Assembly (NCBI GenBank): GCA_024763435.1
Contig: JANTFN010000002.1
Span: forward strand, 1-37,378
Origin: Thermodesulfobacteriota bacterium
GTDB lineage: Bacteria; Desulfobacterota; S145-22
Direction: 5' to 3'
Length of the DNA: 37,378 nucleotides
Of this stretch, positions 1,315 to 26,575 are shown piece by piece (positions within the stretch are counted from its first letter, which is position 1; every line of letters begins with the position of its first letter). The position numbers were made by a program, and so were the translations under genes. The notes beneath the pieces were generated by a model. The model was not told where the DNA came from. It did not search any database and saw only the letters and a list, made by a program, of their open reading frames with translations.

Positions 1315-1656
1315 ATGGAGATATCCCGTGAAACAGTCAATGGCGTGGACGTGGTCAGGTTTTCGGGACGCTTAAATACGACCAGTGCCCCGGACGCGGA
1401 AAAGAAAATTACGACTATCATAGAGGAAAATCCACAGGCGCTTCTCGTCAATCTGGCAGCGGTGGATTACATCAGCAGTGCCGGATTGCGGGTGCTGCTT
1501 CTCGGCGCGAAGATGATGGAAAAAGGGAAGGGGGCGCTGGGGCTTTGTTGTCTTCAAAATGCGGTCAAGGAGGTTTTTGATATCTCTGGGTTTACTGCTA
1601 TTTTCCGCATCTTCAATTCTGAGGACGCCGCGATTAAAGAGATAATGGCTGCATGA
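1315..1656 (+). CDS. STAS-domain anti-sigma-factor antagonist (SpoIIAA/RsbV-like, 113 aa)
   Basis: Size and motif VDYISSAGLRVLL, with the conserved serine (S54/S55) in the position of the SpoIIAA/RsbV phospho-serine, followed by KEVFDISGF. Confidence 0.9.
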   Translation: MEISRETVNGVDVVRFSGRLNTTSAPDAEKKITTIIEENPQALLVNLAAVDYISSAGLRVLLLGAKMMEKGKGALGLCCLQNAVKEVFDISGFTAIFRIFNSEDAAIKEIMAA

Positions 1657-2987
1657 GCGCGTCTTTAATCGAGAGCGCTATGCCTGTTTCGCTGAATACG
1701 TTTGCGGATGCGAGGTTTCTTCCGCTTGTCCTGTCCGTGGTGGAAAACGGCTGCAGGGCCCTGGGGGCCGGGAAGGCGGAAGCTCTGAAGCTGGTACTTT
1801 CCAGTGAGGAAATTTTTTCTCACCTTGCCTCTGTTTTGCCGGAAAAAACACCGCTTCAACTTGGGATTTCAACGGGGATTTACTATGATCAGGTGGAGAT
1901 GTCGGTTCCCGTTGGGAACGTTGATCTTCGGGCCCTGAATCTTACGGCAAGCGTTTCTCCGGAAAGAGCGGGAGACCTTGAGGACATGGGGCTTTTAATC
2001 GCGGCCCGGTCCGTGGATCACCTCCGTATCCTGAAAAACGAAAGCGGGGGCATTACCTTCCGAATTATCAAGGAACGGGCTTATCCTGAGGCAGAAGTTA
2101 TGCCGGATTTGGAAATACCGGAAGAGGCCCGAGAGATGACCGTAACGGCTGCCGAGCCAGAGGCCTTGAAGGCCTTTGTTTATTCTTTAATCAGACACTA
2201 CGAACCCGAGGCGTTTCCGGGCGCGTTCGCCTATCCGGGCAAACTGGTCGATATGATGAGGGGCGGGACGTATGGCAACCTGATCGCGCAGAATCGTGCA
2301 AAAGGGGTGCTGTATGGCGGGGTTGCCTGGCATGTCTTGAATAAACGCGTGGTGGAATGTTTTGGCCCTTATGTTTTTGTAAAAAAGGGTCGGAAAGAAG
2401 TCACGCGCGCCCTGCTGGACGGGGTTGTCGGGAAAATTGCCCGAACCCACGCCCTGGGGCTTATCAACCGGTTCCCTACCCGGGAAATGCCAACGGGATA
2501 TTTTGAGCAGCTCGGAACGGTCATGGATTTTGCGAAAACCGCCGAGGGGCGCGAATGCCCTTATTACTATCGCCTTCTCGACGAAGATCTGGGATCTAAG
2601 GTCTGGGCCACCCCGGAAATTGAAGCCTTTTTAAGAGCGGCCTTCCAGCGGCTTGTGTTGCCGAGGGAAGCCGTGATAACCCACAATGAGGGGGAGCATC
2701 TTCCCGCCCATTCCGTTATCGCGACTGAATTTGAACACCCCATGAAACGCGCCATCCTCCGTCCCATGCTGCTGGGGGAAGACAAGGCCGAAATCCTCAA
2801 CAGCCATGTTGCCGCGCTCGGAGGAGAAGCCATCGGCAATATCCTGTTTGAACTTGACCTTGGAATTTCTTCCAATGCCCTCTGGATTCCCGCGCTTATC
2901 CGGCAGCGTTTTGCCCCGAGGGTCCTCCTGCCGTATGCCGGGAAAGGCGACATCATCGTTTTTCAGTATGACGCAACCGCCGCTTAA
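1653..2987 (+). CDS. Unknown 444-aa protein: N-terminal degenerate RsbW-like (HATPase-like) domain fused to a GNAT-like region
   Basis: ATGA overlap with the STAS gene. Residues ~10-145 align collinearly by eye with the 135-aa kinase encoded at 11045. The kinase motifs are lost: N-box ALVNII becomes IFSHL, G1 DWGIPF becomes PVGNVD, and G2 GGMG becomes EDMG. The C-terminal ~290 aa resembles the protein encoded at 9970-10989. Confidence 0.7.
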   Translation: MSASLIESAMPVSLNTFADARFLPLVLSVVENGCRALGAGKAEALKLVLSSEEIFSHLASVLPEKTPLQLGISTGIYYDQVEMSVPVGNVDLRALNLTASVSPERAGDLEDMGLLIAARSVDHLRILKNESGGITFRIIKERAYPEAEVMPDLEIPEEAREMTVTAAEPEALKAFVYSLIRHYEPEAFPGAFAYPGKLVDMMRGGTYGNLIAQNRAKGVLYGGVAWHVLNKRVVECFGPYVFVKKGRKEVTRALLDGVVGKIARTHALGLINRFPTREMPTGYFEQLGTVMDFAKTAEGRECPYYYRLLDEDLGSKVWATPEIEAFLRAAFQRLVLPREAVITHNEGEHLPAHSVIATEFEHPMKRAILRPMLLGEDKAEILNSHVAALGGEAIGNILFELDLGISSNALWIPALIRQRFAPRVLLPYAGKGDIIVFQYDATAA

Positions 2988-4074
2988 TCAACTCGTTCCT
3001 GCCTATATCCGAGGGTTTGAGGCCTATATTCCCAGCAAACCCGATCCGGAGCTCATGAAGCTGTATGGCTGCTCCCGGATTTTCAGGCTGAATAATAACG
3101 AAAATCCCCTGGGGCCGCCACCCGCGGCCCGCCGGATTATTAAAGACTTTATTCCCTTCAAGGCGTCCATCTATCCCAGCGGGGATGCCTATTACCTGCG
3201 AACCAGGCTGGCCGAGCGATTCGGGTTCCACCCCGATCAATTTATTGTGGGGAATGGTGCCAATGAAGTCATCGCCTTTGTAATCAAGGCCTTTTGCCAG
3301 GAAGGGGACAACATTATCACCGCGGACAAGACCTTTGCCGTTTATGAATGGGTTGCCGAATTTTCCGGGTTCGAGGCGCAACTTGTTCCCCTGAAAGGGT
3401 TTGGATTTGACGACGCGGCAATGCTGGAGCGTATTAATGAACGGACCAAAATCCTCTTCGTCTGCAACCCCAACAACCCGACAGGAAGCTACTGGCCGGA
3501 GGAAAGACTGCGGAATTTTCTTGACCGAATTGACGGCCGGCAGATTGTGGTGGTGGATGAGGCCTATTTCGAATTTCTTGATCAACCAGATTATCCCGAC
3601 GGGATGAAACTGATTGCAGATTACCCCAACCTCGTTGTCTTCCGGACATTTTCCAAGATGTATGGACTGGCGGGGCTGCGAATCGGATACCTCGCGGGAA
3701 GCATGGACGTGGTGGATATCATCCGGCGGACCTGTGTGGTTTATTCCGTGAATGTGGTCGCCCAGGAGGCCGCGCTCGCCGCCCTGGATGACCCGGAGCA
3801 CATCCTGAAGACCCGGGCGCTGATTCGGGAAGAGAAGGCCTTTGTTACCCGTGAACTCGACGCGATGGGGATTCCCTATGTAAGCGGAGAGGCAAATTTC
3901 ATGATGATAAAACTGCCCATCAGCGATACCCTGGCCTATCGGAAGATGATGAAAAAAGGGGTGATGATTCGTTCGATGACGGGATTTCGGTATCCCAATT
4001 ACATCCGCCTGACCCTTCACACCCACGAGGCGATGGAGGCCTTTGTGGCGGCCCTGCGAGAGGTGGTGACATGA
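2968..4074 (+). CDS. hisC: Histidinol-phosphate/aromatic aminotransferase family protein (PLP-dependent, 368 aa)
   Basis: Motifs NNNENPLGPP, NPNNPTG and FSKMYGLAGLRIGY (PLP lysine). I placed the start at the ATG at 2968 (MTQPPLNQLVPAYIRGFEAY), not at the tracked 2806, which would run through the previous gene. Confidence 0.85.
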   Translation: MTQPPLNQLVPAYIRGFEAYIPSKPDPELMKLYGCSRIFRLNNNENPLGPPPAARRIIKDFIPFKASIYPSGDAYYLRTRLAERFGFHPDQFIVGNGANEVIAFVIKAFCQEGDNIITADKTFAVYEWVAEFSGFEAQLVPLKGFGFDDAAMLERINERTKILFVCNPNNPTGSYWPEERLRNFLDRIDGRQIVVVDEAYFEFLDQPDYPDGMKLIADYPNLVVFRTFSKMYGLAGLRIGYLAGSMDVVDIIRRTCVVYSVNVVAQEAALAALDDPEHILKTRALIREEKAFVTRELDAMGIPYVSGEANFMMIKLPISDTLAYRKMMKKGVMIRSMTGFRYPNYIRLTLHTHEAMEAFVAALREVVT

Positions 4075-6377
4075 GCCTTGTTCATGCCCGACCCCTCCAG
4101 ATCGGGGAATCTGAGCCGCGTGCCGACGCCCCCGCCAAGGCGGCAGGTCGTGAGCGCTACGCGATAGACTTTTACGAAGAAGGAATGCTCTGGGCCGGTG
4201 TTAAGCGGGCTGATATTCCCCATGCCGTCTTTGATGGGATCGACGTGGAGGCCGCCCTGAAAGTGCCGGGCGTTGTCGATATTCTCACGGCGAAGGATAT
4301 TACCGGGTCCAATCGCCAGGGAGTGGCGCGTCGCGACCAGCCTGTTCTCGTGGATGACAGGATTCGGCACCGGGGGGACGGTGTGGGCCTCGTCATCGCG
4401 GAGAACCGGGAGGCGCTGCGCACCGCTGTTCAGCGTATTACCGTCAAGGCCACTCCTTTGCCGGGGGTGTTTGATTTTGAGACCGCCCTCCGGGAAGACG
4501 CCCCGCGGATTCACGAAGACCACCCGGATGGGAATATTCTCCTCAAGGGACATCTCGAGACCGGTGACGGCACTGCCGCGTTCAAGGCCTGCGCGCATGT
4601 GGTGGAGGCTATTTTCGAGCTCCCGTATCAGGAACACGCCTATCTCGAAACCGAAGCGGGCTGGGCCGTTACGCGGGAAGACGGCACAGTAGAAATCACC
4701 GCTTCCACGCAAACCCCGTTTCGGGACCGGGCAGAAATAGCCGAGGCACTGGGGATTGAGGAGGAGAGGATTCGTGTCATTGCTCCCTTCTGCGGCGGGG
4801 CCTTTGGCGGTAAGGACGGCATCACGGTCCAGAGCCTTCTCGCCCTGGCGGCCCTGAAATACCCGGGGCGTCCCGTCAAGATGTGGTGGGAACGGGAGGA
4901 AAGCTTTGTGGCAAGCGCGAAACGCCACCGCGCCCGGTGCCATTACCGCCTCGGGGCCGGTGCCGACGGGCGGTTCCACGCCCTGGCGGCGGAACTCTTC
5001 TATGATACCGGCCCCTACGATCATCTCGGTGGCGCGGTCATGGCCCTCGGGTTGGAGCACACGGGCGGCCCTTACCGCATCCCCAATACCTGTTTGAAGG
5101 CGTGGGCGATTTACACGAACAACCCTGTCGGCGGCGCCTTTCGGGCCTTCGGAATCGCGCAGGCTACTGCCGCGATGGAACAGATGGTGGATATGCTGGC
5201 GGAAAAGGCCGGGTATTCTCCGCTGGAAATCCGCCGGATCAACGCCGTCAACCAGGGCGACAAAACCCCCTTGGGCGTTACTCTTCAGACCTCCACGGGG
5301 ATTGTGCAATGCCTTGAAATTCTTCAGGAGCATCGGATGTGGCGGGACCGCGCGGTCTGGAAAAATGAGGCGGGCCCCTTTAAAAAAAGGGGCGTGGGGC
5401 TTGCCGCCGTCATGCATGGCATGGGGTATGGGCCGGTTATCCCCGATGTTGCCAATGCCCGGATTGAACTGACCCACGACGGTCGCTTTCAGGTTGCCTG
5501 CGGGGTTGTGGACATGGGTCAGGGAAATGCCAGCACGTTTCTCCAGATAGCCGGGGATATCCTTTCGCAGGACAGGAAACACCTGACACTTGTCTTGCCG
5601 GATACGGCACGGACCCTACCCTCCGGCTCCGCCTCCGCCAGCCGGACGACCTACACCTACGGCAACGCCCTCATTAAGGCAACGTTTCTCCTCAGGGAAC
5701 GGGTCCTTAAACGCTGCGCGGATCTTATGATGGTCTCCGATCTCGGGGAGCTGGCACTTATCCCGGGTGCGGTTTGCCATGTCACGACGGAAAGGGAATT
5801 TGCGCTGGGCGAAATTGCCCGGGTGATGGACGGGAACGAGCGTGTGGCCGTCGCGCACTTTCGCGCCCCCCAGTCGTGCGAGCTTCCCGATATTGATCCC
5901 AATCTCCGGCTTCACGGAATTCCCCATGTTGTTTTTTCCTATGGGGCGCACCTCGCCGGCGTGGAGGTAGATCTGCTCACCGGCGACATCGCCGTTAAAC
6001 AGTACCTGGCGGTCAGTGATTGTGGCCGAATTCTCAACCCCCAGCTTTTTGAGCAGCAGGTTCAGGGGGGGATTGCCCAGGGGCTGGGTTACGCCCTGAT
6101 GGAGGAAATTCCGGTGGAAAAGGGGGAGATGAAGACCCTTAATTTCTCGACCTATCTCCTCCCGACCGCTCTCGACATTCCCGATATGACGGTTATCACC
6201 GCGGGGGGACATGAAGCAACCGGTCCCTACGGGTTGAAGGGCGTGGGGGAAATGCCCACCAGCGGTCCGCTCCCCGCCGTGGCCAACGCCGTGGCCGATG
6301 CCTGTGGAATCCGACTGCGCCACTTTCCCATGACACCCGAGCGGGTCCTTGCGGCGCTCAAAAAGGAACGTCCATGA
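4071..6377 (+). CDS. Xanthine dehydrogenase/aldehyde oxidase-family molybdopterin-binding large subunit (768 aa)
   Basis: The length fits. Motifs: N-terminal GESEPRADAPAKAAGRERYAIDF, GGAFGGK, and the GVGE active-site region near the C-terminus. The start makes an ATGA overlap with hisC. Confidence 0.9.
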   Translation: MSLVHARPLQIGESEPRADAPAKAAGRERYAIDFYEEGMLWAGVKRADIPHAVFDGIDVEAALKVPGVVDILTAKDITGSNRQGVARRDQPVLVDDRIRHRGDGVGLVIAENREALRTAVQRITVKATPLPGVFDFETALREDAPRIHEDHPDGNILLKGHLETGDGTAAFKACAHVVEAIFELPYQEHAYLETEAGWAVTREDGTVEITASTQTPFRDRAEIAEALGIEEERIRVIAPFCGGAFGGKDGITVQSLLALAALKYPGRPVKMWWEREESFVASAKRHRARCHYRLGAGADGRFHALAAELFYDTGPYDHLGGAVMALGLEHTGGPYRIPNTCLKAWAIYTNNPVGGAFRAFGIAQATAAMEQMVDMLAEKAGYSPLEIRRINAVNQGDKTPLGVTLQTSTGIVQCLEILQEHRMWRDRAVWKNEAGPFKKRGVGLAAVMHGMGYGPVIPDVANARIELTHDGRFQVACGVVDMGQGNASTFLQIAGDILSQDRKHLTLVLPDTARTLPSGSASASRTTYTYGNALIKATFLLRERVLKRCADLMMVSDLGELALIPGAVCHVTTEREFALGEIARVMDGNERVAVAHFRAPQSCELPDIDPNLRLHGIPHVVFSYGAHLAGVEVDLLTGDIAVKQYLAVSDCGRILNPQLFEQQVQGGIAQGLGYALMEEIPVEKGEMKTLNFSTYLLPTALDIPDMTVITAGGHEATGPYGLKGVGEMPTSGPLPAVANAVADACGIRLRHFPMTPERVLAALKKERP

Positions 6378-6853
6378 AAATATCCTTTGCGCTGAACGGC
6401 AGACCTGTTACCCGCGACCTTCCGCCGGACCGGCGGGTTGTCGATGCCTTGCGGGAGGACCTGGGACTGCCTGGAACCAAGGAGGCGTGTGGGACCGGAG
6501 AATGCGGGGCCTGCACGATCCTCGTGGATGGGGTTCCCAGACTCTCCTGCCTGATGCTTGCCGCCCAACTCGAAGGCAGGAAAATCACGACCATTGAGGG
6601 CATCGGCAAAGCAGAAAAGCCGCATCCCGTTCAGGAAGCCTTCGTCGAGGCCGGCGCGGTCCAGTGCGGTTTCTGTACCCCCGGGATGGTACTTACCGCA
6701 GTTCATTTCCTTGAGGAAAATCCCGGGCCTACCCGGGAGGAAATACGTGAAGCCCTGAGCGGGAACATCTGTCGATGCACTGGTTATCAGAAGATCGTGG
6801 ATGCCGTTGAACTGGCATCAAAAAGATTGTCTAAAAAAGGGACAACAGAATGA
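6374..6853 (+). CDS. [2Fe-2S]-binding small subunit of the molybdenum hydroxylase (159 aa)
   Basis: Cysteine motifs CGTGECGACT, CGFCTPGM and CRCTGYQKI. ATGA overlaps on both sides. Confidence 0.95.
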   Translation: MKISFALNGRPVTRDLPPDRRVVDALREDLGLPGTKEACGTGECGACTILVDGVPRLSCLMLAAQLEGRKITTIEGIGKAEKPHPVQEAFVEAGAVQCGFCTPGMVLTAVHFLEENPGPTREEIREALSGNICRCTGYQKIVDAVELASKRLSKKGTTE

Positions 6854-7710
6854 AGGTCTTTCTTCCGGGAACGCTTGAGGACCTCTGGGAACGGTGGGAA
6901 AAAATTCCCAACGCCCGGATTTACGCCGGTGGGACCGACTTTATGGTCAAACTGCGCGAAGGGGCGATTCAGGCTCCTGCCCTGATTTGTCTTGAACGTA
7001 TTCCCGCCCTGACGAAAATCAGAGAGGAAGAAAATACCCTCTTCATTGGGGCAGGGGTTTCTCATGCCGGGATTCTTACCCACCCCCTTGTTCAAACCTG
7101 GTGTCCTGTCCTGGTGGAAGCCCTGCGCGTCCTGGGATCTCCCCTTATCCGGAACATGGGAACCCTCGGGGGTAATATCGCTACTGCGTCTCCAGCAGGA
7201 GACAGCCTCCCCGCCCTCTACGTTCTGGATGCGGAAGTCGTTCTTGCTGATGCTCGTAAAACCCGGGTACTGCCCATAAGCGATTTTATTTTGAGCCCCG
7301 GGAAAACCAGTTTGAAGGAACGGGAAATCATTCGCGGTGTCCGAATCCCCAGGCCCATGCCTTACACCATGTCCCGCTATGAAAAGGTTGGGAAACGGAA
7401 GGCTATGGCTGTCGCGGTTGCGAGCCTGGCCGCCTGTCTTCGATTTGACACGAACGGAGTAGTGAAAATCGCCCGCCTCGCCTGGGGAAGTGTGGGCCCG
7501 ACTATTGTGACGGCTTCCCGAGTCGAAAAGGCGCTTGTGGGATTTCCTCTCAGCCGAAAGCACCTGGAAGAAATTGCTCCGATGGTGGAAGAGGCTGTTT
7601 CTCCTATTGACGATATTCGCGCCAGCGCGGTTTACCGGAAAAAAATAGCCATCAACCTTTTGTGCCGGCTTGCGGGAGACAGCAATTTCAATGGGAGGTT
7701 CACACCATGA
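6850..7710 (+). CDS. FAD-binding medium subunit of the molybdenum hydroxylase (CoxM/XdhB-like, 286 aa)
   Basis: Motifs AGGTDFMVKLR, GTLGGNIATASPAGD and a C-terminal SAVYRKK-type segment. Confidence 0.9.
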   Translation: MKVFLPGTLEDLWERWEKIPNARIYAGGTDFMVKLREGAIQAPALICLERIPALTKIREEENTLFIGAGVSHAGILTHPLVQTWCPVLVEALRVLGSPLIRNMGTLGGNIATASPAGDSLPALYVLDAEVVLADARKTRVLPISDFILSPGKTSLKEREIIRGVRIPRPMPYTMSRYEKVGKRKAMAVAVASLAACLRFDTNGVVKIARLAWGSVGPTIVTASRVEKALVGFPLSRKHLEEIAPMVEEAVSPIDDIRASAVYRKKIAINLLCRLAGDSNFNGRFTP

Positions 7711-8891
7711 CAGAACGGGGAAAACTCCTCACCCGGGATTTCCTTGTCCTGAATTTTATCATCTTTCTAACCTACTGTAATATCGCGGTATTTTTTCAGC
7801 TCCACGAGTATCTCCTGCATATCATCCACACCTCCCAGGAAGAGGCCGGATTCCTTATCGGGGTCTTTGCCCTCACGGCCCTGATCATCCGCCCCTTCAT
7901 CAGCCCATTCCTGCGGCCGGAAAATGCCCGTAAATGGATCCTTACCGGTGCGGTCGGCGTGGGCATCGCTCTCCTCTTTTATCACCTGGGCAGGGGATTT
8001 GCCGGGATGGCTGCCATTCGGATCATTCACGGGACCTTCTACGTCATCATGGCCACCGCGGTCATGGCGAGAATGGTAGCCTGTATTCCAAAGAATCGGA
8101 GCGCTGAAGCCTTCGGAATCATTTCTGTTATCACGCTTCTTCCCTATGCGGTCCTTCCTCCCCTGATCAATCCCCTCATCACCTGGTTCGGCGGTTTTCT
8201 CCCCGTCTTGGACATAACAGCCCTGTTGATGATTCCAATCCTCCCTCTGTTGGCCCTGATACGTCCTGTCGAAGAGGGAGGAGGGAAGCAAAGTGGAAGA
8301 CTTGCTGTTACCGAATTGAAGGAAAATCTTAAAAACAGACGGATAGTCGGTTTGCTCATCATTTCTCTCTTTGTTTTTACCGCCTTTACCCCTGTTTTCT
8401 ATTTTCTCAAGGGCTACGCGAGGAGTATTGGCATCCGGAATGCCGGGTGGTTTTTTACCATTTCAACTGCTGTGGAAATCCTTGTCCGGCTTATAGGGGG
8501 AAAATTTATGGACCGGGGAGACAAGCCCAGGATCCTCCTTTTTGCGCTGATTCTTCTTCTAACAGGCTATCTCATCCTCGCTCACACTTCATCACACCTT
8601 CTTTTCTATGCCCTCGCTCTTCTTTTCGGGCTGGCATGGGGTATTGCCCTGCCCATCCTGAATGGCCTTGTTTTTGACTACTCTTCTCCCAGATTGCGGC
8701 CACTCAACGCAAACCTGGGGCTTGAGATGTTTCAGGGCGGGTTTTTTCTCGGCCCTTTCCTCGGCGGAATTTTTCTGGCAACAGGGTCTTACCGCACCCT
8801 TTATTACGTTTGCGGCGGCCTGATTATTGTCGCCCTCGCCATGTTGCCCCTGCTGACCTCACCCAAAAACGTCAGGGAGGAAACGATATGA
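7707..8891 (+). CDS. MFS-type transporter (394 aa)
   Basis: About 12 hydrophobic segments. The start is at ATG 7707 (MTERGKLL), preceded by GGGAGG, and makes an ATGA overlap with the FAD subunit stop codon. Confidence 0.8.
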   Translation: MTERGKLLTRDFLVLNFIIFLTYCNIAVFFQLHEYLLHIIHTSQEEAGFLIGVFALTALIIRPFISPFLRPENARKWILTGAVGVGIALLFYHLGRGFAGMAAIRIIHGTFYVIMATAVMARMVACIPKNRSAEAFGIISVITLLPYAVLPPLINPLITWFGGFLPVLDITALLMIPILPLLALIRPVEEGGGKQSGRLAVTELKENLKNRRIVGLLIISLFVFTAFTPVFYFLKGYARSIGIRNAGWFFTISTAVEILVRLIGGKFMDRGDKPRILLFALILLLTGYLILAHTSSHLLFYALALLFGLAWGIALPILNGLVFDYSSPRLRPLNANLGLEMFQGGFFLGPFLGGIFLATGSYRTLYYVCGGLIIVALAMLPLLTSPKNVREETI

Positions 8892-9970
8892 TAATTGTCT
8901 GGACCGCAGGGATTTTCTTCATTCTCTTCATCCTTGTAGAAAGCTTTGCCCGCCTTTATCATCGTTTTCGATTCAAAATTCCCTTTCACTCGCGGGTTAT
9001 GGGGGAATATCCCTACAGCCAATTCGTGGAGCAGACTGATCCGCCGCTCTTCTACCGTTTTAAAAAGGGGTTTCGATCGCCCATGATTCATATCAACCGG
9101 TTTCGGTGCCGGGGAGAAGAACCTGCAGAAGACGGACAGAAAAAGCGGATTATGTTGATTGGTGAATCGATGTATTTCGGTGTTAAACTAAGGCATGAAA
9201 AAGAGCTTTGGTCATGCCGGCTGGAACATCTCCTTAAGGAACATGGTTATTCGAACTGGGAGGTTATCAACGCGGGGAACCCCATGTACAACAGCGTTCA
9301 GCACAGGCTTCTATGGGAACAGGACCTGTGCAGGGCAAAACCGGACATCCTCCTCATCAACATGGGGGGAAATGATGTTACCCAGGCCTGGATGATGGGT
9401 GCTCAATGGGAACCGGGCGCGCCCTGGCCCTGGAATTTTATCACGGCTTTGGAAAGAAAATCTCCCTGGTGGAACAAATTCCTTTCACGGTTCTGCTTTT
9501 ACTTTCTTCTTCGAAGAAGCATAACAGCGCGACGGCCCTTTTCCCGTCAGGACGAAATCTTCAAGTGGGAACAGTGCCTGAAAACGATTCACGAGAATTT
9601 TATATCTATCGCCGAGGATGCGGAGAAGGCAGGAGCAAAAGTGGGCTTTATCAGTTTTGCTCCTGCAAGCGACAAAGCCCCAAGGTCGGAAGACCACCCG
9701 AAACTGGAGGCGATTCAATCAAACTGGAAAACATTTGCAGAAGGAAGCTTTCCATACGTCTACCAAATGAACGATTCTTTCCGGGAGGATGTATGCCCGC
9801 AATACGGCTGCCCCTATATTGATCTGATGAAGGTTTTTCACGCCTGTCCGAACCGTTACGAACTTTTCTTTGATATCGGGCACTGGAATGCGGGGGGTAT
9901 GCGGGTCGTCTCGAACACCATTTTTGAGGAACTCGAAAACCTGAGATGGCTTGAAAGAGGAAAAAAGTAA
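8888..9970 (+). CDS. SGNH/GDSL-like hydrolase with an N-terminal membrane anchor (360 aa)
   Basis: N-terminal transmembrane segment IIVWTAGIFFILFILV. Block I LIGESM (GES in place of GDS), block III MGGNDV, block V DIGHWN (DxxH). ATGA overlap with the MFS gene. Confidence 0.7.
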   Translation: MIIVWTAGIFFILFILVESFARLYHRFRFKIPFHSRVMGEYPYSQFVEQTDPPLFYRFKKGFRSPMIHINRFRCRGEEPAEDGQKKRIMLIGESMYFGVKLRHEKELWSCRLEHLLKEHGYSNWEVINAGNPMYNSVQHRLLWEQDLCRAKPDILLINMGGNDVTQAWMMGAQWEPGAPWPWNFITALERKSPWWNKFLSRFCFYFLLRRSITARRPFSRQDEIFKWEQCLKTIHENFISIAEDAEKAGAKVGFISFAPASDKAPRSEDHPKLEAIQSNWKTFAEGSFPYVYQMNDSFREDVCPQYGCPYIDLMKVFHACPNRYELFFDIGHWNAGGMRVVSNTIFEELENLRWLERGKK

Positions 9971-10989
9971 TGGAGAAGGAAATCCAGCCCGGACAGGATG
10001 TATTGATAGACCGCTTTCGTCCGGAAGACGCGGAGGGGGTCGCTAACCTTTTTATCTCTGTTTACGGGGAGGGGTATCCCATTCGGGCCTACGTGGAGCC
10101 GGAACGTCTCAGGGAAGAAAATGCTGCCGAAACCATTATTTCGAGCGTGGCACGGACACCCCGGGGAGAGATTGTCGGTCACAATGCCCTGTTCAGGAGC
10201 GCGCCCCATGCGGGTGTCTATGAATCGGGCGCCGGCCTGGTCCATGAAAACTACCGGGGCGGAAAGGGAGTCTTCACAGAAATGGTTGCCCACGGGCAGG
10301 AACTGGCCCAAAAAACACCTGCCGTCGAAGGCATCTTCGGCGAAGCGGTCTGTAACCATGTTTTTTCCCAGAAACTGACCCATGGGTTGGGATGGAAAAG
10401 CATGGCTGTTGAGGTGGATCTCATGCCCGCCGCTGCTTATGTAAAGGAGAGGAGCGCCCGGGGACGGGTGGCTTCGATTCTTGATTTCAAGACAATTCGT
10501 CCCAGGACCGTCCGCGCCTGCCTGCCTGCCGTTTATGAAAAAGAACTGCAATTTATCTATGATGGCATGGATGATGAGAGAAATCTGGTTCCCTGCAAGG
10601 GATCCCCCCCCGATTCCGTGGAAACCCGCATTGAAAGCCGGTATTTCGAGTTTGCTAACGTGGCCCGGCTGGCCGTTTGGGAAATGGGAAAGGATTTCGC
10701 ACAGGCTTTCCCGGCCCGCGAGAAAGAGATGCTGAACCGGGGAGCAGCGATTACCCAGGTCTGGCTCAACACCGGCGTTCCCTGGTGCGGATGGGCCGTT
10801 GAAATTCTGAGAGATAAAGGGTATTTTCTGGGCGGGGTTCTTCCCCGATGGTTTGACAGTGACGGGTTGCTCATGCTCCGAATTCTACACCGTCCTTTCT
10901 GGGAAGAGATGCGGGTGCATTACGAGCGTGCCCGGAAAATCGTGGCTATCGCCAGAAATGACTGGCAGCGCCTCGGAAAAGAAACCTGA
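9970..10989 (+). CDS. GNAT-family acetyltransferase-like protein with a C-terminal extension (339 aa)
   Basis: N-terminal GNAT pattern (RFRPEDAEGVANLF ... IVGHNALF ... YRGGKGVFTEMV). The start overlaps the previous stop codon by 1 nt (TAATG). Confidence 0.7.
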   Translation: MEKEIQPGQDVLIDRFRPEDAEGVANLFISVYGEGYPIRAYVEPERLREENAAETIISSVARTPRGEIVGHNALFRSAPHAGVYESGAGLVHENYRGGKGVFTEMVAHGQELAQKTPAVEGIFGEAVCNHVFSQKLTHGLGWKSMAVEVDLMPAAAYVKERSARGRVASILDFKTIRPRTVRACLPAVYEKELQFIYDGMDDERNLVPCKGSPPDSVETRIESRYFEFANVARLAVWEMGKDFAQAFPAREKEMLNRGAAITQVWLNTGVPWCGWAVEILRDKGYFLGGVLPRWFDSDGLLMLRILHRPFWEEMRVHYERARKIVAIARNDWQRLGKET

Positions 10990-11044
10990 TTGCGCCGGGA
11001 TTTTCGGGGTGGACAGAAAAAGCCGCCTTTTACGTGGAGGTGAA

Positions 11045-11452
11045 ATGAGGCAAATTATATTGCCGGCCAGGCTGAAAAACCTTGGAGAACTTATTGGTTT
11101 CGTTTCGGCCTGTGCAGAGGATTACGGCCTTTCTCCGGAAAAGATTGGAACGATTGAACTGGCAGCGGAAGAGGCCCTTGTTAATATCATCCGCTACGCC
11201 TATCCGGAAAAGCCGGGGGAGATCGAAATATATTGTCATCAAAACGAAACGGTTTTTATGATTACCTTCAAGGACTGGGGCATTCCCTTCAACCCGCTTT
11301 CCAGGCCGGACCCGAACACGCATCTTTCCCTCGCGGAGCGGCAGATTGGCGGGATGGGAATTTTGCTGATTAAAAAAATGATTCCCGAAGTCCGGTATAA
11401 GCGGGAAAGCCGGACGAATATCCTCTCCTTTGTTATTCCGGAAGAAAAATAA
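11045..11452 (+). CDS. Anti-sigma regulatory factor-type Ser/Thr kinase (RsbW/SpoIIAB-like, 135 aa)
   Basis: Intact N-box (EEALVNIIRYA), G1 (DWGIPF) and G2 (GGMGILLIKKM). GGAGGTG precedes the ATG at 11045. The tracked start at 10853 overlaps the previous gene. Confidence 0.85.
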   Translation: MRQIILPARLKNLGELIGFVSACAEDYGLSPEKIGTIELAAEEALVNIIRYAYPEKPGEIEIYCHQNETVFMITFKDWGIPFNPLSRPDPNTHLSLAERQIGGMGILLIKKMIPEVRYKRESRTNILSFVIPEEK

Positions 11453-11463
11453 AAAGTGTCGCC

Positions 11464-13416
11464 GTGGGGAAAATGAGGTTGTCAAACAGTATTGAAAAAA
11501 GACTTGCCCTCTGGGTTATTTCGAGTGTTTCCATTATTCTTGCCTTTTCACTGGGGTACAATTACACGGTTTCCAAAAGGCTTATCACCCGGGAAATCGA
11601 GGGAAAGGCCATGGAAACCCTGCGGGCGACCATCAACCGTATGGATATCATTTTTTTTTCCATGGAAAAAGCCACAAAAACCCTGGCCATCCCAATGGAA
11701 GATCGCCGTGTTGCCTCGAATAAAGAGAATATCTTTTTTCTCCTCCAGCGGGTTGTTGCCGAAAACAGGGAAGTTTATGGGAGTACTGTGGCGTTTGAAC
11801 CCTACGCTTTTGATTCCCACCGCCGTTTTTTCGCGCCGTATTATTACAAACACGGCGGCAAGCTGAGTTTCAAGTATATTCCATACAATTACTTCGCGTG
11901 GGGCTGGTACATGATGCCCACGCTCCTCCACCGAGCCGTTTGGGTGGAGCCGTATTTTGATAAGGAAGCGGGAAATATTGTGATGTCCACCTATTCCGTT
12001 CCCCTCTACAGGGCGGATCCGGATAAGAAGGAATTTTTTGCGGTTGCCACGGTGGATGTGTCCCTCGCGTGGCTGCAGAGTATTGTTTCATCTATTAAGA
12101 TAGGGCACACGGGGTATGGTTTTCTTATTTCGAAGAAGGGAACCTTTGTGACCCATCCCGCCAGCCGTCTCGTCATGCGGAAGACTATCTTTGAAGTTGC
12201 CAGAGAAAGGGGAGACAAGGCCCTGTTGAACATCGGCCTGGAAATGATTCGGGGAAAAACCGGGTTTGTTCCCTATGCCGGCCCCTTTGTGAAGAAACCC
12301 GCCTGGTTGGCCTATGCCCCCTTGCGTTCCAACGGCTGGTCCCTCGCGATTATCTTTCCCCGGCAGGAACTTCTTGGAGATGTTCAAAAGCTGAACCGGC
12401 AGATTTTATTTATCAGCCTGCTGGGATTTTTCTTTTTGATGCTTGTCATCGCGTTGATTGCAAAAGGGATTACCCGGCCCCTGCGCTTTCTTGCCGTGGC
12501 GGCCGACCGGATTGCCACGGGTGAATGGGAAACCCCGCTCCCTCCTATTCGAAACGATGATGAAGTCGGGAAATTGACACAATCCTTTGAACACATGAAG
12601 ACCTCACTGAAAAAGTATTTCAATGACCTGAAGGAAACCACGGCGGCACGGGAAAGGATAGAAAGTGAATTAAGGATCGCGAGGGATATCCAGATGGGTC
12701 TTGTCCCCAAGGTGTTTCCGCCTTTCCCGGAAAAGAAAGAATTTGAAATCCACGCCATTCTTGAACCGGCACGTGAGGTGGGGGGCGACCTGTATGATTT
12801 TTTCTTTACCGATGAAACCCACCTTTGTTTTCTTGTGGGGGATGTTTCCGGTAAGGGGGTCCCCGCTGCGTTGTTTATGGCCATGGCCAAGACGCTGATT
12901 AAGTCGACCGCCGCAGGTAAAATCGATCCCGCCGTCATTGTCCGGATGGTAAATCGTGACCTGGCCGCGGATAACCCCTTTGTGATGTTTGTCACGCTGT
13001 TTCTCGGGATTCTCGACATCAAAACGGGGGCCCTGAGTTATTGTAATGGCGGGCATAACCCCCCGTTCCTCCGCCACTTTAATGGAGAGATTTCCCCCCT
13101 TGCGTCAACACACGGTCTCGCCCTCGGCGTTTCAGAAGACTTCACTTACACATCCAGCCAGATCGACCTCCAGCCTCGGGATGTCCTCTTCGTTTATACC
13201 GATGGTGTCACGGAAGCCATGGACCCGCTGGGGGGTCTCTTTGGTGAACAAAGGCTTCAAAACACGTTGTCTGAAATGGGGGAAATAACCGTTCAGGAAA
13301 TAAACGATACTGTCCTAAAAACGGTTTCTGATTTTGCGGATACGGCGCCCCAGGCAGATGATATCACCCTGCTTACCCTGAAATTTAATCAAAAATCTAA
13401 ATCATCGCCGATATAG
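11464..13416 (+). CDS. Membrane sensor PP2C phosphatase: Cache-like periplasmic domain, HAMP, SpoIIE/PP2C (RsbU-like, 650 aa)
   Basis: N-terminal transmembrane segment, ~280-aa extracytoplasmic region, second transmembrane segment ILFISLLGFFFLMLVIALIA, HAMP (DEVGKLTQSFEHM), and PP2C motifs GGDLYDFF, VGDVSGKG, GGHNPP, YTDGVTEA and DDITLL. The start is GTG 11464 or ATG 11473. Confidence 0.9.
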   Translation: MGKMRLSNSIEKRLALWVISSVSIILAFSLGYNYTVSKRLITREIEGKAMETLRATINRMDIIFFSMEKATKTLAIPMEDRRVASNKENIFFLLQRVVAENREVYGSTVAFEPYAFDSHRRFFAPYYYKHGGKLSFKYIPYNYFAWGWYMMPTLLHRAVWVEPYFDKEAGNIVMSTYSVPLYRADPDKKEFFAVATVDVSLAWLQSIVSSIKIGHTGYGFLISKKGTFVTHPASRLVMRKTIFEVARERGDKALLNIGLEMIRGKTGFVPYAGPFVKKPAWLAYAPLRSNGWSLAIIFPRQELLGDVQKLNRQILFISLLGFFFLMLVIALIAKGITRPLRFLAVAADRIATGEWETPLPPIRNDDEVGKLTQSFEHMKTSLKKYFNDLKETTAARERIESELRIARDIQMGLVPKVFPPFPEKKEFEIHAILEPAREVGGDLYDFFFTDETHLCFLVGDVSGKGVPAALFMAMAKTLIKSTAAGKIDPAVIVRMVNRDLAADNPFVMFVTLFLGILDIKTGALSYCNGGHNPPFLRHFNGEISPLASTHGLALGVSEDFTYTSSQIDLQPRDVLFVYTDGVTEAMDPLGGLFGEQRLQNTLSEMGEITVQEINDTVLKTVSDFADTAPQADDITLLTLKFNQKSKSSPI

Positions 13417-23872: not shown

Positions 23873-26575
23873 TTAAATAATATCGTCCACAACAGAAATA
23901 ATATCTTTTATCTTAAAGGGTTTCTTAATAAACTTTTTGACACCAAGTTTAAGGAGTTTTTTAGCCTCCTCGTCGGAGGCCACGGCGGAAATAACGATAA
24001 TTGGAAGATTCTTGACATTTTTAAATAGCCAGCCAATGAGCTCAACGCCATTCATTCTCGGCATGACAAGATCCAGAATAGCAACATCGTAATGAGTCTC
24101 TTTTAGAAAATCGAGGGCGACGAGGCCATCTTCCGCGGCATCAACATCCGTGGTTTCATCCGTGAGATTCTCTTTTAAAACCTCTCTGAGATATTGTTCG
24201 TCTTCAACCACCAGAATCCGACGCTTTTTCGCAGACACCGTATCTTTTTTGTCCGTGTATGCCCGGGCCACATCGCTTAAAGCGGGGCTCTGGTCAATGG
24301 GCAACCAGACGTGAAAGGAAGTTCCCTTTCCTTCTTCACTTTCAACAATAATTTTCCCGCCATTGATTTCGATAATTCTCTGCGAAATAGGAAGCCCCAA
24401 GCCTGTTCCTTTGCCTTCTGTTTTAGTTGTAAAGAAGGGATCGAATATTCTCGGCAGGTCTTCTTTTTTTATTCCGGTGCCGTTATCCGTTACAGAGACA
24501 ATGACATAATTTTTCACAACCTCTGTTCCTACACTTATCTCTCCGCTTTCCTCTAAGGCATGCCTGGCATTTATGACGAGGTTTATCAGAACCTGCTCAA
24601 TTTGCTTCGCGTCTGCGAACACAAAGGGCAGGTCTTCCGGTATATTGACGTTGAAAAGAATGCCTTTGAGGCTTACACGCGCGTTGATAACAGACTCGAC
24701 CTGGCCCAGGATGTCCCGAAGATGGATGGTCTCTTTTTTCGGCTTCGTGGGGCGTGCGAAATTCATCAGGTCTGAGGTTATTTTTGCAATTCTATCCGTC
24801 TGGCCAAGGATCACCTGGACAAATTTTTCGCCATCTTCTTTGCTTATTTTTTTCTCAAGCATCTGCGCCTTAACCGAGATAACAGCCAGGGGGTTGTTGA
24901 TTTCATGGGCCGCACCCGTTGCCAGTTGCCCGATGAGGGCAAGGCGCTGCTGGTGAATCATGCGTTCTTCACTCATCCCCAGTTTGCTGGAAAAGGTTGA
25001 AAGTTTTTCTTCTCTATGACTGATATTTTCCAGAGAGGTAATAATTGTTAACATACCGGACAAAACGCCCGAGAAACTATCAAGAAAGGGGGAAAAATCT
25101 ATACCATTCATTGCCGTTTCAGAATTTTCGGCGATTCGGCAAACAGCTCCCCCGGCCAGGATTTTCCCGCCATTAACATCGGAGAGGAAGAGGGGAACAG
25201 TCCATGTGAAAAGTGTTGTATCCGTCATAGATGGATTACGGGGTTTTTTTACAAAGGATTTTCCCTGCGTATAGGCCTCTTTCAGGCTTTCCCGCACTTC
25301 ATCACCGCTGTTAAAGGAGCTAAAGACAGTATCAAAATTTATAGCCTCAGCCTTGGGGTTCAAAATTCTTTCAGAGATTTCATCTTGCGTGACCTTGTAA
25401 AGGTAAACCTTGCCATCCGGGGCGGAAGAAAAATAAAAAACAAGCTCCTGTGCTGCCGCAAGGTGAGAGAAAAATTCCCAGGCAGCCAGAGCGAGTGTTT
25501 TAATCCAGGGTTGTGATGCGCAATGACTGATAAAAGCAGATAAAGCCTCGACATATTTTTCCAGAAAATAGAGCCGCGTTTGTTCCGCCTCTGCCTCAAT
25601 ATGCATCTTCCCAAGGGCAAGGTTGGCGTCACACAGGATTGAAACAAGGTCGTTTTCTGAGTTGGCCTCTGCTTCCAGTAACTGGGAGTATTCCCCCATT
25701 TTTGTATAAATATAGGCAAGAAGGGTTCGGATATCCGATTCCTTGATTTCCCATAATTCCTTCACCATATTAAAGGTGTTGGTATAATGGAGATGGCATC
25801 CCAGTTTAAAGCTGCTGTTGGAAAAGTAGTTTTCTCCTATCCCATAAACGTTGCATAAGGAATCTACGAACCTGACAAGTTGCGGCAATGTTTTTTGCGA
25901 ACCGTCAGATGAAAAAGGTTGATGGTGAAGCCATATACAATTTACAACCTCTTCCGGAAGTCCCCATTTTTCCGCGGCCCATTTACCCACAATCGTGTGA
26001 TCAACATGCCATATTTCGTTTTCCAGCATCAGGGGAGGTGTGTTGCGCTGGTCAAGATAGGATTGCGTCCCCAGCTTGTCGAGAAGGCTATCGAGCATCG
26101 AGGGGGCCTGAGAATAAATGATAAGTTTTCCAAGGTCGTGAAGAAGCCCTCCCAAAAAGCACTCCTCTTTGCCGGGGAGGTGTTTGCTTTGTGAACAGAA
26201 CCATTCGCATGCCAGGGCACACCCAATGGCGTGTTTCCAGAAGGCATGGAAGATTTCTTTATCTCCATTCCTGAAGGTGTCAAAGATAGCGGACGTGAGG
26301 ATGATGTTTCTGAGGATTCTACGTCCCAGAATCGTAATAGCCCTGGGTATTGTCAAAACTGGCCTGCGGCGGCCAAACAGGGCGGAATTGGAGATCCTCA
26401 GAATCCTGGATGCCAGTGCCGGGTCCAGTTTAATCTTTTCCGCCAGGTCCTCGACCTCAGATGTTTCGTCAATGACAGCGTGGATAAGGGGGATAGCAAT
26501 ACCGGGGAGAGACGGAATTTGATCCGGTGAGGAGATAAAACTTTTTGAAATTGAAGGGTTTTCCTTGTTTTCCAT
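23873..26575 (-). CDS. Soluble hybrid sensor: HDOD domain, unassigned central region, HisKA/HATPase histidine kinase, C-terminal receiver (900 aa)
   Basis: HDOD-like N-terminus (LPSLPGIAIPLIHAVIDETSEVEDLAEKIKLDPALASRILRISNSALFG, later HDLGK). H-box GAAHEINNPLAV. N, G1 and G2 boxes (NLVINARHA, DNGTGI, GTGLGL). Receiver RILVVEDE...AILDLVMPRMNG...KKPF. I saw no clear transmembrane segment. Confidence 0.9.
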   Translation of the reverse strand: MENKENPSISKSFISSPDQIPSLPGIAIPLIHAVIDETSEVEDLAEKIKLDPALASRILRISNSALFGRRRPVLTIPRAITILGRRILRNIILTSAIFDTFRNGDKEIFHAFWKHAIGCALACEWFCSQSKHLPGKEECFLGGLLHDLGKLIIYSQAPSMLDSLLDKLGTQSYLDQRNTPPLMLENEIWHVDHTIVGKWAAEKWGLPEEVVNCIWLHHQPFSSDGSQKTLPQLVRFVDSLCNVYGIGENYFSNSSFKLGCHLHYTNTFNMVKELWEIKESDIRTLLAYIYTKMGEYSQLLEAEANSENDLVSILCDANLALGKMHIEAEAEQTRLYFLEKYVEALSAFISHCASQPWIKTLALAAWEFFSHLAAAQELVFYFSSAPDGKVYLYKVTQDEISERILNPKAEAINFDTVFSSFNSGDEVRESLKEAYTQGKSFVKKPRNPSMTDTTLFTWTVPLFLSDVNGGKILAGGAVCRIAENSETAMNGIDFSPFLDSFSGVLSGMLTIITSLENISHREEKLSTFSSKLGMSEERMIHQQRLALIGQLATGAAHEINNPLAVISVKAQMLEKKISKEDGEKFVQVILGQTDRIAKITSDLMNFARPTKPKKETIHLRDILGQVESVINARVSLKGILFNVNIPEDLPFVFADAKQIEQVLINLVINARHALEESGEISVGTEVVKNYVIVSVTDNGTGIKKEDLPRIFDPFFTTKTEGKGTGLGLPISQRIIEINGGKIIVESEEGKGTSFHVWLPIDQSPALSDVARAYTDKKDTVSAKKRRILVVEDEQYLREVLKENLTDETTDVDAAEDGLVALDFLKETHYDVAILDLVMPRMNGVELIGWLFKNVKNLPIIVISAVASDEEAKKLLKLGVKKFIKKPFKIKDIISVVDDII

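Follow-up and report, generated by a model that had tools for sequence, protein, structure and literature searches.

Which protein does a partner-switching module control when no sigma factor gene lies beside it? Partner-switching modules are among the commonest bacterial signalling devices, and their outputs outside the sigma-B and sigma-F paradigms are mostly uncharted. The question is raised by a 37,378-nucleotide stretch of contig JANTFN010000002.1 from a Thermodesulfobacteriota bacterium (assembly GCA_024763435.1; the whole stretch is called the window here), in which eleven abutting or overlapping + strand genes at 1315-13416 form an operon whose last gene encodes a Cache-HAMP-PP2C phosphatase and whose downstream neighbour is convergent. 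An earlier note on this DNA, made from the letters alone, had proposed that a gene coupled to a STAS-domain gene at the start of this operon encodes a pseudo-kinase fused to a GNAT-like module, and that this fusion is a candidate non-sigma output of the switch. Our analysis indicates that this 444-amino-acid (aa) protein is a fusion of a kinase-derived domain that has lost its ATP-binding residues with a GNAT-fold module that has lost its acyl coenzyme A (CoA) loop, that its constant neighbour is an aminotransferase, and that gene context points to it as a candidate for the partner alternating with STAS, through a link that is optional. The genes and domains at the centre of the question are as follows.

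1315-1656, + strand: STAS-domain protein of 113 aa, anti-sigma-factor-antagonist type (Pfam STAS 3.9e-19, TIGR00377 2.3e-22)
1653-2987, + strand: gene of the 444-aa protein (ATG at 1653, stop codon at 2985-2987), with a predicted pseudo-kinase domain and a two-lobed GNAT-fold module
1686-2081, + strand: RsbW/SpoIIAB-fold domain, residues 12-143 (hhalign and Foldseek), ATP-binding residues replaced
2139-2582, + strand: GNAT-fold lobe 1, residues 163-310, with beta4 Glu235 and Gly238 retained, the pyrophosphate loop unconserved and alpha4 reduced
2595-2972, + strand: second alpha/beta lobe, residues 315-440, collinear with the C-terminal lobe of a 339-aa protein of the same operon (hhalign and two AlphaFold2 models)

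The TGA of the STAS gene overlaps the ATG of the 444-aa gene in an ATGA joint. Taken alone, the 444-aa protein matches no Pfam or NCBIfam model, and PDB sequence searches with the single protein and with the family profile retrieved nothing useful. It has 78 homologs of ~440 aa, and an exhaustive profile search with a threshold of E<=1e-30 retrieved 299 cluster representatives, almost every one of which measures 430-445 aa; a 543-aa relative (P0113) was rejected as a real variant, its tail being low-complexity read-through. The hosts are anaerobes, among them Desulfobacterota, Syntrophorhabdus, Syntrophus, Syntrophomonas, Pelotomaculum, Dethiobacter and Sporomusaceae. The family profile and the residue counts given below were drawn from 46 aligned members, and the AlphaFold2 model of the 444-aa protein has a mean predicted local distance difference test score (pLDDT) of 88.3 and a predicted template modelling (TM) score (pTM) of 0.85.

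Pairwise BLASTP of the 444-aa protein gave E 0.085 against the RsbW-type kinase encoded at 11045, which is not significant alone, and nothing against the 339-aa GNAT protein encoded at 9970, so both relationships are visible to profiles only. When the 46-member profile was aligned by hhalign to that of 14 RsbW kinases linked to the same gene cluster, residues 12-143 fell on kinase residues 2-134 with a probability of 97.9% and E 6.2e-13, which bears out the collinear alignment of residues ~10-145 in the earlier note, in the same register as its example pairs. The Pfam model PF13581 (HATPase_c_2) reached 24 of the 46 relatives at E<=1, the best at 4.4e-7, and did not match the window protein itself at that threshold. 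With Foldseek, the top PDB matches of the AlphaFold2 model were RsbW, UsfX and SpoIIAB (structures 6M37, 8JZT, 1TIL and 1L0O; E 2.6e-7 to 1e-5, target TM 0.73-0.85), and the degenerate GHKL/RsbW fold suggested earlier is thereby upheld. By both Foldseek and hhalign, then, the N-terminal domain has a Bergerat-type alpha/beta fold collinear with RsbW.

The residues that bind ATP in this fold are a different matter. Seven of them (E43, N47, D77, G79, G102, G103 and G105) are invariant across the 14 cluster-linked kinases, and their counterparts in the 444-aa protein and its relatives are these.

N-box Glu43 of the kinase: Glu53, retained
N-box Asn47 of the kinase: His57; among the 46 relatives Tyr in 27, His in 16, Phe in 2 and Ser in 1, with no Asn
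G1 Asp77 of the kinase: Val85; Phe, Val, Ile or Leu in 46 of 46, and Asp in 0 of 46
G1 Gly79 of the kinase: Val87; unconserved in the 46 relatives
G2 Gly102-Gly103 of the kinase: Glu110-Asp111; mostly acidic in the family, the G2 motif of the window protein reading E-D-M-G
G2 Gly105 of the kinase: Gly113, retained and invariant

The ATP-binding motifs (N-box E..N, G1 D.G and G2 GG.G) are therefore broken family-wide, and only the N-box Glu and the last G2 Gly are kept. Because these RsbW-defining motifs are absent, we did not class the 444-aa protein as a kinase, and it is predicted to have no normal ATP-dependent kinase activity. Two of the substitutions named in the earlier note, the loss of the G1 Asp (Val85) and the change of GGMG to EDMG, proved to hold throughout the family; the third had been placed one residue off, the N-box Asn being replaced by His57 and not by the neighbouring Ser56. 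The domain is nevertheless under selection and not a relic, because its mean pairwise identity (44%) matches that of the two GNAT lobes (40% and 46%); the linker stands at 26%. Invariant or nearly so within it are a lid-equivalent A-F-N-L-T segment (with N96) and the stretch M112-G-L-L-I-A-x-R119.

We then compared the remaining ~290 aa with the 339-aa protein encoded in the same operon. Profile-profile alignment with hhalign brought residues 154-444 onto residues 3-310 of the 339-aa family over 281 collinear columns (probability 89.4%, E 2.1e-6). In both lobes of the AlphaFold2 model of the 339-aa protein (pLDDT 92.8), strands and helices follow one another as in the 444-aa model, with the single difference that the alpha4 helix is lost or reduced in the 444-aa protein. 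Foldseek matched lobe 1 of the 444-aa protein to ArsN/PAT, YncA, RimI/J, AAC(6')-Ii, the tabtoxin resistance protein (TTR), CBU0801 and Ard1 (E 6e-6 to 2e-4 and target TM 0.6-0.7 for ArsN, CBU0801, TTR, AAC(6')-Ii, Ard1 and RimI), and matched the 339-aa protein to RimJ/L, ArsN/PAT/YncA and SpeG. The b1-a1-a2-b2-b3-b4-a3-b5-a4-b6-b7 order of the GNAT fold is present, alpha4 being reduced, and four invariants are common to both families, two of them in beta4 (E235/E85 and G238/G87) and two in the C-terminal 'LP....D' pattern (P427/P292 and D433/D298). The earlier view of this part as GNAT-like and paralogous to the protein at 9970 is thus sustained by the alignment, by the shared GNAT neighbours and by the P427/D433 pattern. 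Support for full-length homology of both lobes to the 339-aa family is moderate, not overwhelming; as judged from sequence comparison, the GNAT-fold module of the 444-aa protein and the 339-aa protein seem to derive from the same stock.

The loop between beta4 and alpha3, with the pattern R/Q-x-x-G-x-G/A, is the acyl-CoA pyrophosphate-binding motif of GNATs. The 339-aa family keeps it as (Y/F)-R-x-x-G-(I/V), with R in 20 and G in 19 of 23 sequences. In contrast, the corresponding loop of the 444-aa family (positions 243-249) is acidic or proline-rich, varies in length, contains gaps and has no conserved R/Q or G. Pfam GNAT models at E<=1 reached none of the 46 members of the 444-aa family, and Acetyltransf_1 matched 9 of 23 relatives of the 339-aa protein. 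Canonical acyl-CoA binding by the 444-aa protein is doubtful because the CoA loop is unconserved and no Pfam GNAT model matches, and since the CoA motif is missing we did not class the C-terminal module as an acetyltransferase. The protein may thus be a pseudo-enzyme twice over, pseudo-kinase and pseudo-acetyltransferase, and the suggestion in the earlier note that enzyme activity is the readout of the switch becomes doubtful for the same reason, the loop being unconserved. Polar residues that are invariant in the 444-aa family include D200, E285, R338, D402 and D433.

The rest of the operon supplies both a partner-switching module and a set of metabolic genes.

2968-4074, + strand: HisC-family pyridoxal-phosphate aminotransferase of 368 aa (TIGR01141 at 303 bits, cutoff 276.6)
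4071-7710, + strand: molybdenum hydroxylase of the xanthine dehydrogenase (XDH) family in three subunits, molybdenum (Mo) 4071-6377, 2Fe-2S 6374-6853 and flavin adenine dinucleotide (FAD) 6850-7710 (Pfam and NCBIfam matches)
7707-8891, + strand: major facilitator superfamily (MFS) transporter (Pfam MFS_1 2.2e-42)
8888-9970, + strand: membrane-anchored GDSL/SGNH hydrolase (Pfam Lipase_GDSL_2 2.8e-9)
9970-10989, + strand: 339-aa two-lobed GNAT, paralog of residues 154-444 of the 444-aa protein (hhalign E 2.1e-6)
11045-11452, + strand: RsbW-type serine kinase of 135 aa with N-box, G1 and G2 intact (HATPase_c_2 1.9e-27)
11464-13416, + strand: RsbU-type membrane sensor phosphatase with dCache, HAMP and PP2C (SpoIIE) domains (SpoIIE 1.4e-50, MCP-like_PDC_1 1.5e-25, HAMP 1.2e-11)

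A full partner-switching set is therefore encoded in one operon: a STAS protein with a phosphorylatable Ser within DYISSAGLR (all 16 cluster-linked STAS proteins compared have both S54 and S55), a motif-intact RsbW-type kinase and a Cache-HAMP-PP2C phosphatase. No sigma factor gene was found in the operon nor in the next 13 kb (13.4-26.6 kb). The aminotransferase gene, which starts at 2968, shares its first 20 nt with the 3' end of the 444-aa gene. None of the XDH subunits reaches an NCBIfam equivalog cutoff (xanthine dehydrogenase, 4-hydroxybenzoyl-CoA reductase, aldehyde oxidoreductase or glyceraldehyde dehydrogenase), and only the first third of the FAD subunit (protein residues 2-111) is covered by its match to the 4-hydroxybenzoyl-CoA reductase beta model. 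The assignment of the aminotransferase and XDH genes to a known pathway (xanthine dehydrogenase, 4-hydroxybenzoyl-CoA reductase or ectoine EctA/B) was rejected, the XDH subunits being below cutoff and the EctA match standing at E 0.012.

Several features of the window lie apart from these subjects. At the XDH large-subunit gene the G+C content rises to 0.62 (4001-6000), compared with 0.47 at the operon start and 0.45-0.54 over most of the window; biased codon or amino-acid usage may account for the difference, or the gene may have a separate origin. Just ahead of the operon, the + strand encodes a type II toxin-antitoxin pair (PhdYefM antitoxin at 583-861, Pfam 1e-15; YoeB toxin at ~858-1138, Pfam 2.6e-33). 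On the - strand, 23873-26575 encodes a 900-aa hybrid protein with HDOD, HisKA, HATPase_c and receiver domains, and further large ORFs lie at 28005-31916 and 32170-36207. The window is present only in hydrothermal-vent and marine-sediment metagenome runs, all of them DNA.

To see how the 444-aa gene is placed elsewhere, 71 loci were surveyed by tblastn and home-built hidden Markov models, 67 of them from species-representative genomes (scanned with a 10-sequence alignment) and four from contig look-ups. A HisC-type aminotransferase gene lies directly downstream in 70 of the 71, and the remaining locus runs off its contig. Aminotransferase identity across the loci is 64-85%, far above the 34-64% of the 444-aa family itself. 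The adjacency in 70 of 71 loci, set against the optional presence of STAS, makes the aminotransferase and not STAS the likely primary functional partner of the 444-aa protein. An 813-aa database representative (P0151) joins a 444-aa homolog in frame to a HisC-type aminotransferase at the joint ...FRRPAA|LNSLVPDF..., which could be a natural Rosetta-stone fusion or a frameshift artefact of metagenome assembly. The other members of the cluster are frequent rather than constant, with XDH subunits in 43-48 loci, the MFS transporter in 39, the 339-aa GNAT in 33 and the GDSL hydrolase in 7, and the cluster occurs in two phyla, with Desulfobacterota, Syntrophorhabdus and Syntrophus on one side and Firmicutes (Syntrophomonas wolfei subsp. 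methylbutyratica, Pelotomaculum, Dethiobacter and Sporomusaceae) on the other.

Two of these surroundings deserve separate mention. In metagenome-assembled genomes (MAGs) of Sporomusaceae and Veillonellaceae, a single 865-aa protein combines a 339-aa-type GNAT with an AMP-binding (acyl-CoA ligase-like) enzyme (L067:3451-6048 and L061:93-2678; Pfam AMP-binding 1.4e-85), which hints that the pathway activates a carboxylic acid. In a Desulfobacteraceae locus (L068), a LivHMGF-type branched-chain amino-acid ATP-binding cassette transporter precedes a set made up of RsbW, the 444-aa homolog, aminotransferase, MFS and GDSL genes, and a protein with an FGE-sulfatase domain (Pfam 3.7e-61) follows it, the two flanks lying at 2972-6488 and 12361-13272.

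Partner-switching genes recur in this cluster in more than one arrangement. By tblastn, STAS was found in 21 of the 71 loci, RsbW in 19 and PP2C in 16; among the 27 loci whose flanks are visible for ~9 kb or more on each side, at least one partner-switching gene is present in 10 and the full set of three in 8. STAS lies directly upstream of the 444-aa homolog only in the clade of the window (L005-L007) and, independently, in a Dethiobacter locus (L052) with no kinase or phosphatase within 10 kb. RsbW lies directly upstream with a 4-nt overlap in four loci (L010, L013, L018 and L068) and is also immediately upstream in L036, and RsbU holds that place in three (L031, L045 and L064). Elsewhere a STAS-RsbW(-RsbU) set follows the 339-aa GNAT (L009, L045 and L065, with STAS alike placed in L042) or the aminotransferase (L061 and L067). 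Because the linkage is repeated, in shuffled gene orders and in two phyla, it speaks for a functional link rather than chance, and we argue that the tie between partner switch and cluster is real but optional. No sigma factor gene was conserved near the family. A fused form of two cluster-linked components was also seen, a PP2C phosphatase and an RsbW kinase forming one ~573-aa membrane protein in a Peptococcaceae MAG (L055:3792-5513).

As for the earlier proposal of a non-sigma output, the complete module, the lack of a sigma factor gene and the recurrence of such modules in two phyla speak for it, and what has to be given up is the idea of a fixed link. No characterised example of an RsbW-GNAT fusion, or of such a pseudo-kinase, was found in the literature, as the earlier note had supposed; however, the RsbW-GNAT architecture is not new, being already widespread in databases as fusions of ~500 aa. 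These make up a family of >256 clusters in many phyla with intact kinase motifs, automatically annotated as 'ATP-binding protein', 'GNAT family N-acetyltransferase' or 'serine/threonine-protein kinase RsbW' (examples are P0348 from Syntrophomonadaceae and P0459 from Desulfonatronum lacustre). A related 544-aa protein lies near the cluster in a Syntrophomonadaceae MAG, matches HATPase_c_2 at 2e-24 as well as Acetyltransf_1, and is 23% identical to the 339-aa protein over 93% of its length. One of four sampled contexts of the ~500-aa family (L073) reads STAS - RsbW - RsbW-GNAT.

What, then, does the 444-aa protein do? The folds and homologies, the loss of the ATP-binding residues and of the CoA loop, the pairing with the aminotransferase, the frequent company of XDH, GNAT and exporter genes, the recurrent but optional module and the lack of a sigma factor gene in the window are points of which we are very confident. 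We infer that the protein works with the aminotransferase in a small-molecule pathway, and it is less likely to be an ordinary enzyme dependent on acetyl-CoA than a substrate-binding or regulatory subunit. For loci that have the module, a chain of events can be proposed. The Cache-HAMP phosphatase would sense a signal and dephosphorylate STAS; unphosphorylated STAS would dock on the kinase-derived domain, which would be unable to phosphorylate and so release it; docking would alter the effect of the GNAT module on the aminotransferase or the GNAT pathway; and the true RsbW kinase would phosphorylate free STAS and reset the switch. This proposal draws support from the repeated presence of the module in the cluster, the conservation of the N-terminal domain, the absence of a sigma factor gene, the gene order of L073 and the precedent of a partner switch that acts on an enzyme (bioRxiv 10.64898/2026.04.08.717354). 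Taken as a whole, with the 444-aa protein as the output of the switch where a module is present and with the predicted direct docking of STAS, we put the chain forward tentatively, as possible but short of probable. Its most specific form, in which a doubly dead pseudo-enzyme is a partner-switch-controlled regulatory subunit of the HisC-type aminotransferase/GNAT pathway and its kinase-derived domain a non-phosphorylating receptor of dephosphorylated STAS, is rather doubtful.

A number of observations weigh against the 444-aa protein being the output of the switch. In 17 of the 27 fully visible loci no partner-switching gene occurs within 10 kb, so that the fusion does not always travel with a STAS gene, a point the earlier note had proposed to survey, and the constant neighbour is the HisC-type aminotransferase; Syntrophomonas wolfei subsp. 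methylbutyratica JCM 14075, for instance, carries the family with no module in the cluster. These 17 module-free loci conserve the same N-domain residues, which means that the domain must have a role independent of a STAS protein encoded in the cluster; a comparison of N-domain conservation between loci with and without a nearby module gave no informative difference. In L010, L013, L018 and L068, RsbW abuts the 444-aa homolog and no STAS was seen, and STAS was absent from three of the four sampled contexts of the ~500-aa relatives. The loss of the CoA motif, for its part, is argued from aligned residues. Mirror-tree comparison over 14 loci, which gave r 0.67-0.75 for STAS and the 444-aa homolog and r 0.44 for STAS and RsbW, leans towards the proposed chain, since STAS tracks the 444-aa homolog at least as well as its kinase, but the signal is weak and confounded by shared ancestry.

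The strongest of the rival explanations is that the kinase-derived domain is merely a structural or dimerisation module, while the partner switch acts on some other target, such as the 339-aa GNAT or a sigma factor or enzyme whose gene lies elsewhere. That most loci lack a nearby partner-switching gene and still conserve the N-domain residues is what this explanation would lead one to expect; the pTM of 0.85 over all three lobes points to rigid packing of the N-domain against the GNAT lobes, and STAS-RsbW often adjoins the 339-aa GNAT instead of the 444-aa homolog (L009, L042, L045 and L065). It leaves unexplained, however, why a complete module was repeatedly recruited into this cluster in two phyla, and why the A-F-N-L-T segment (N96) and the M112-R119 stretch stayed invariant after nucleotide binding was lost. 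We consider it somewhat unlikely.

Alternatively, the 444-aa protein might stand in the place of the sigma factor, with the true RsbW holding the kinase-derived domain like-with-like and dephosphorylated STAS pulling RsbW off without ever touching the pseudo-kinase. RsbW-family proteins are known to act as dimers, as in the RsbW and SpoIIAB crystal structures, and the loci in which RsbW is directly upstream with no STAS in view (L010, L013, L018 and L068), together with L036, where it is also upstream, and the L073 order of STAS - RsbW - RsbW-GNAT, would suit such an arrangement. Yet it is STAS, not RsbW, that abuts the 444-aa gene in the clade of the window and in Dethiobacter, where L052 has no kinase within 10 kb, and the distances of RsbW and the N-domain are nearly uncorrelated (r 0.13, itself weak evidence). 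We regard this arrangement as quite unlikely.

Less probable still is an active acyl-CoA-dependent N-acyltransferase that acts on the amino-acid product of the aminotransferase and whose catalysis is switched by STAS binding. This is the proposal of the earlier note taken strictly; it has the STAS link in common with the chain set out above and parts from it over catalysis. The amino-acid N-acetyltransferases ArsN/PAT and YncA are its structural neighbours, beta4 Glu235 is invariant and common to the 339-aa GNAT family, many polar residues are invariant (D200, E285, R338, D402 and D433), and the neighbouring aminotransferase could supply an amine substrate; all of this has to be set against an acidic or proline-rich CoA-pyrophosphate loop of varying length and with no conserved R/Q or Gly where the co-encoded paralog keeps R-x-x-G, against the failure of all 46 members to reach a Pfam GNAT model, and against the reduced alpha4 helix. 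A metabolite-sensing anti-sigma factor or anti-activator, in which the RsbW-like domain would sequester a sigma or transcription factor encoded elsewhere and the GNAT-like module would sense an intermediate, can appeal to the RsbW fold as the classic sigma-binding fold and to the general capacity of GNAT-like domains to act as ligand sensors, but is very improbable given that the surroundings of the family include no conserved sigma factor gene and that the obligate, translationally coupled neighbour is an enzyme and not a regulator.

Should the 444-aa protein indeed be the output of the switch, a kinase-dead copy of RsbW welded to a metabolic protein would offer a simple route from STAS phosphorylation to metabolism without transcription, and a testable target for an orphan partner-switching module. 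Together with the ~500-aa RsbW-GNAT family it would form a new class of partner-switching output, one directed at metabolism and not at transcription. The concept of a non-sigma partner switch is itself not new; a kinase-dead RsbW copy fused to an effector as the receiver would be. Beyond this, the survey defines a conserved, uncharacterised cluster of pseudo-kinase-GNAT, HisC-type aminotransferase, XDH-type Mo enzyme, GNAT and exporter genes in syntrophic and sulfate-reducing anaerobes of two phyla, and brings a large, unstudied family of RsbW-GNAT fusions to notice.

Among known systems, RsbW, SpoIIAB and UsfX (HATPase_c_2; PDB 6M37, 1TH8, 1L0O and 8IH8) share with the 444-aa protein a collinear fold, the N-box Glu and the last G2 Gly, and like them it is encoded with STAS and a PP2C phosphatase. 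The 444-aa family differs in that its ATP motifs are replaced, a GNAT-like module of 290 aa is fused to the domain, no sigma factor is linked and the Pfam model fails. It shares the 281 collinear columns and the cluster itself with the 339-aa GNAT family, whose >1300 database relatives are all annotated 'hypothetical', whereas that family keeps the R-x-x-G loop and alpha4, lacks any kinase-like domain and is joined to an AMP-binding ligase in some genomes.

GNATs with fused regulatory domains are known, including the cNMP-binding-GNAT MtPat, ACT-GNAT and PatZ; these acetylate proteins and have their CoA motifs intact. The PatZ structure 9ISQ was among the Foldseek matches of the 444-aa model. 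In these proteins, as here, a sensor or regulatory domain stands N-terminal to the GNAT fold, but the N-terminal domain of the 444-aa protein is a predicted pseudo-kinase and its CoA motif is missing. Partner-switching systems with non-sigma outputs include HsbR/HsbA and SiaABCD of Pseudomonas. Further examples are SypE/SypA of Vibrio fischeri and BtrU/V/W of Bordetella (PMC8256260), and HenR/All4160 of Anabaena is a partner switch that acts directly on an exopolysaccharide (EPS) biosynthetic enzyme (bioRxiv 10.64898/2026.04.08.717354). They resemble the present operon in combining STAS, a serine kinase and a PP2C phosphatase with no obvious sigma factor and a likely biosynthetic or metabolic readout; unlike it, none has a kinase-dead RsbW copy fused to an effector as its target, and here the link is one of gene context alone.

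The nearest relatives in architecture are the ~500-aa RsbW-GNAT proteins. They keep Pfam-detectable kinase and GNAT domains, occur in more phyla and have no tie to the aminotransferase/XDH cluster, in all of which they differ from the 444-aa family; they are like it in their two-part architecture and in a GNAT part related to the 339-aa protein. The 444-aa family accordingly reads as a diverged branch of the RsbW-GNAT architecture in which both enzymatic signatures appear to have been eroded.

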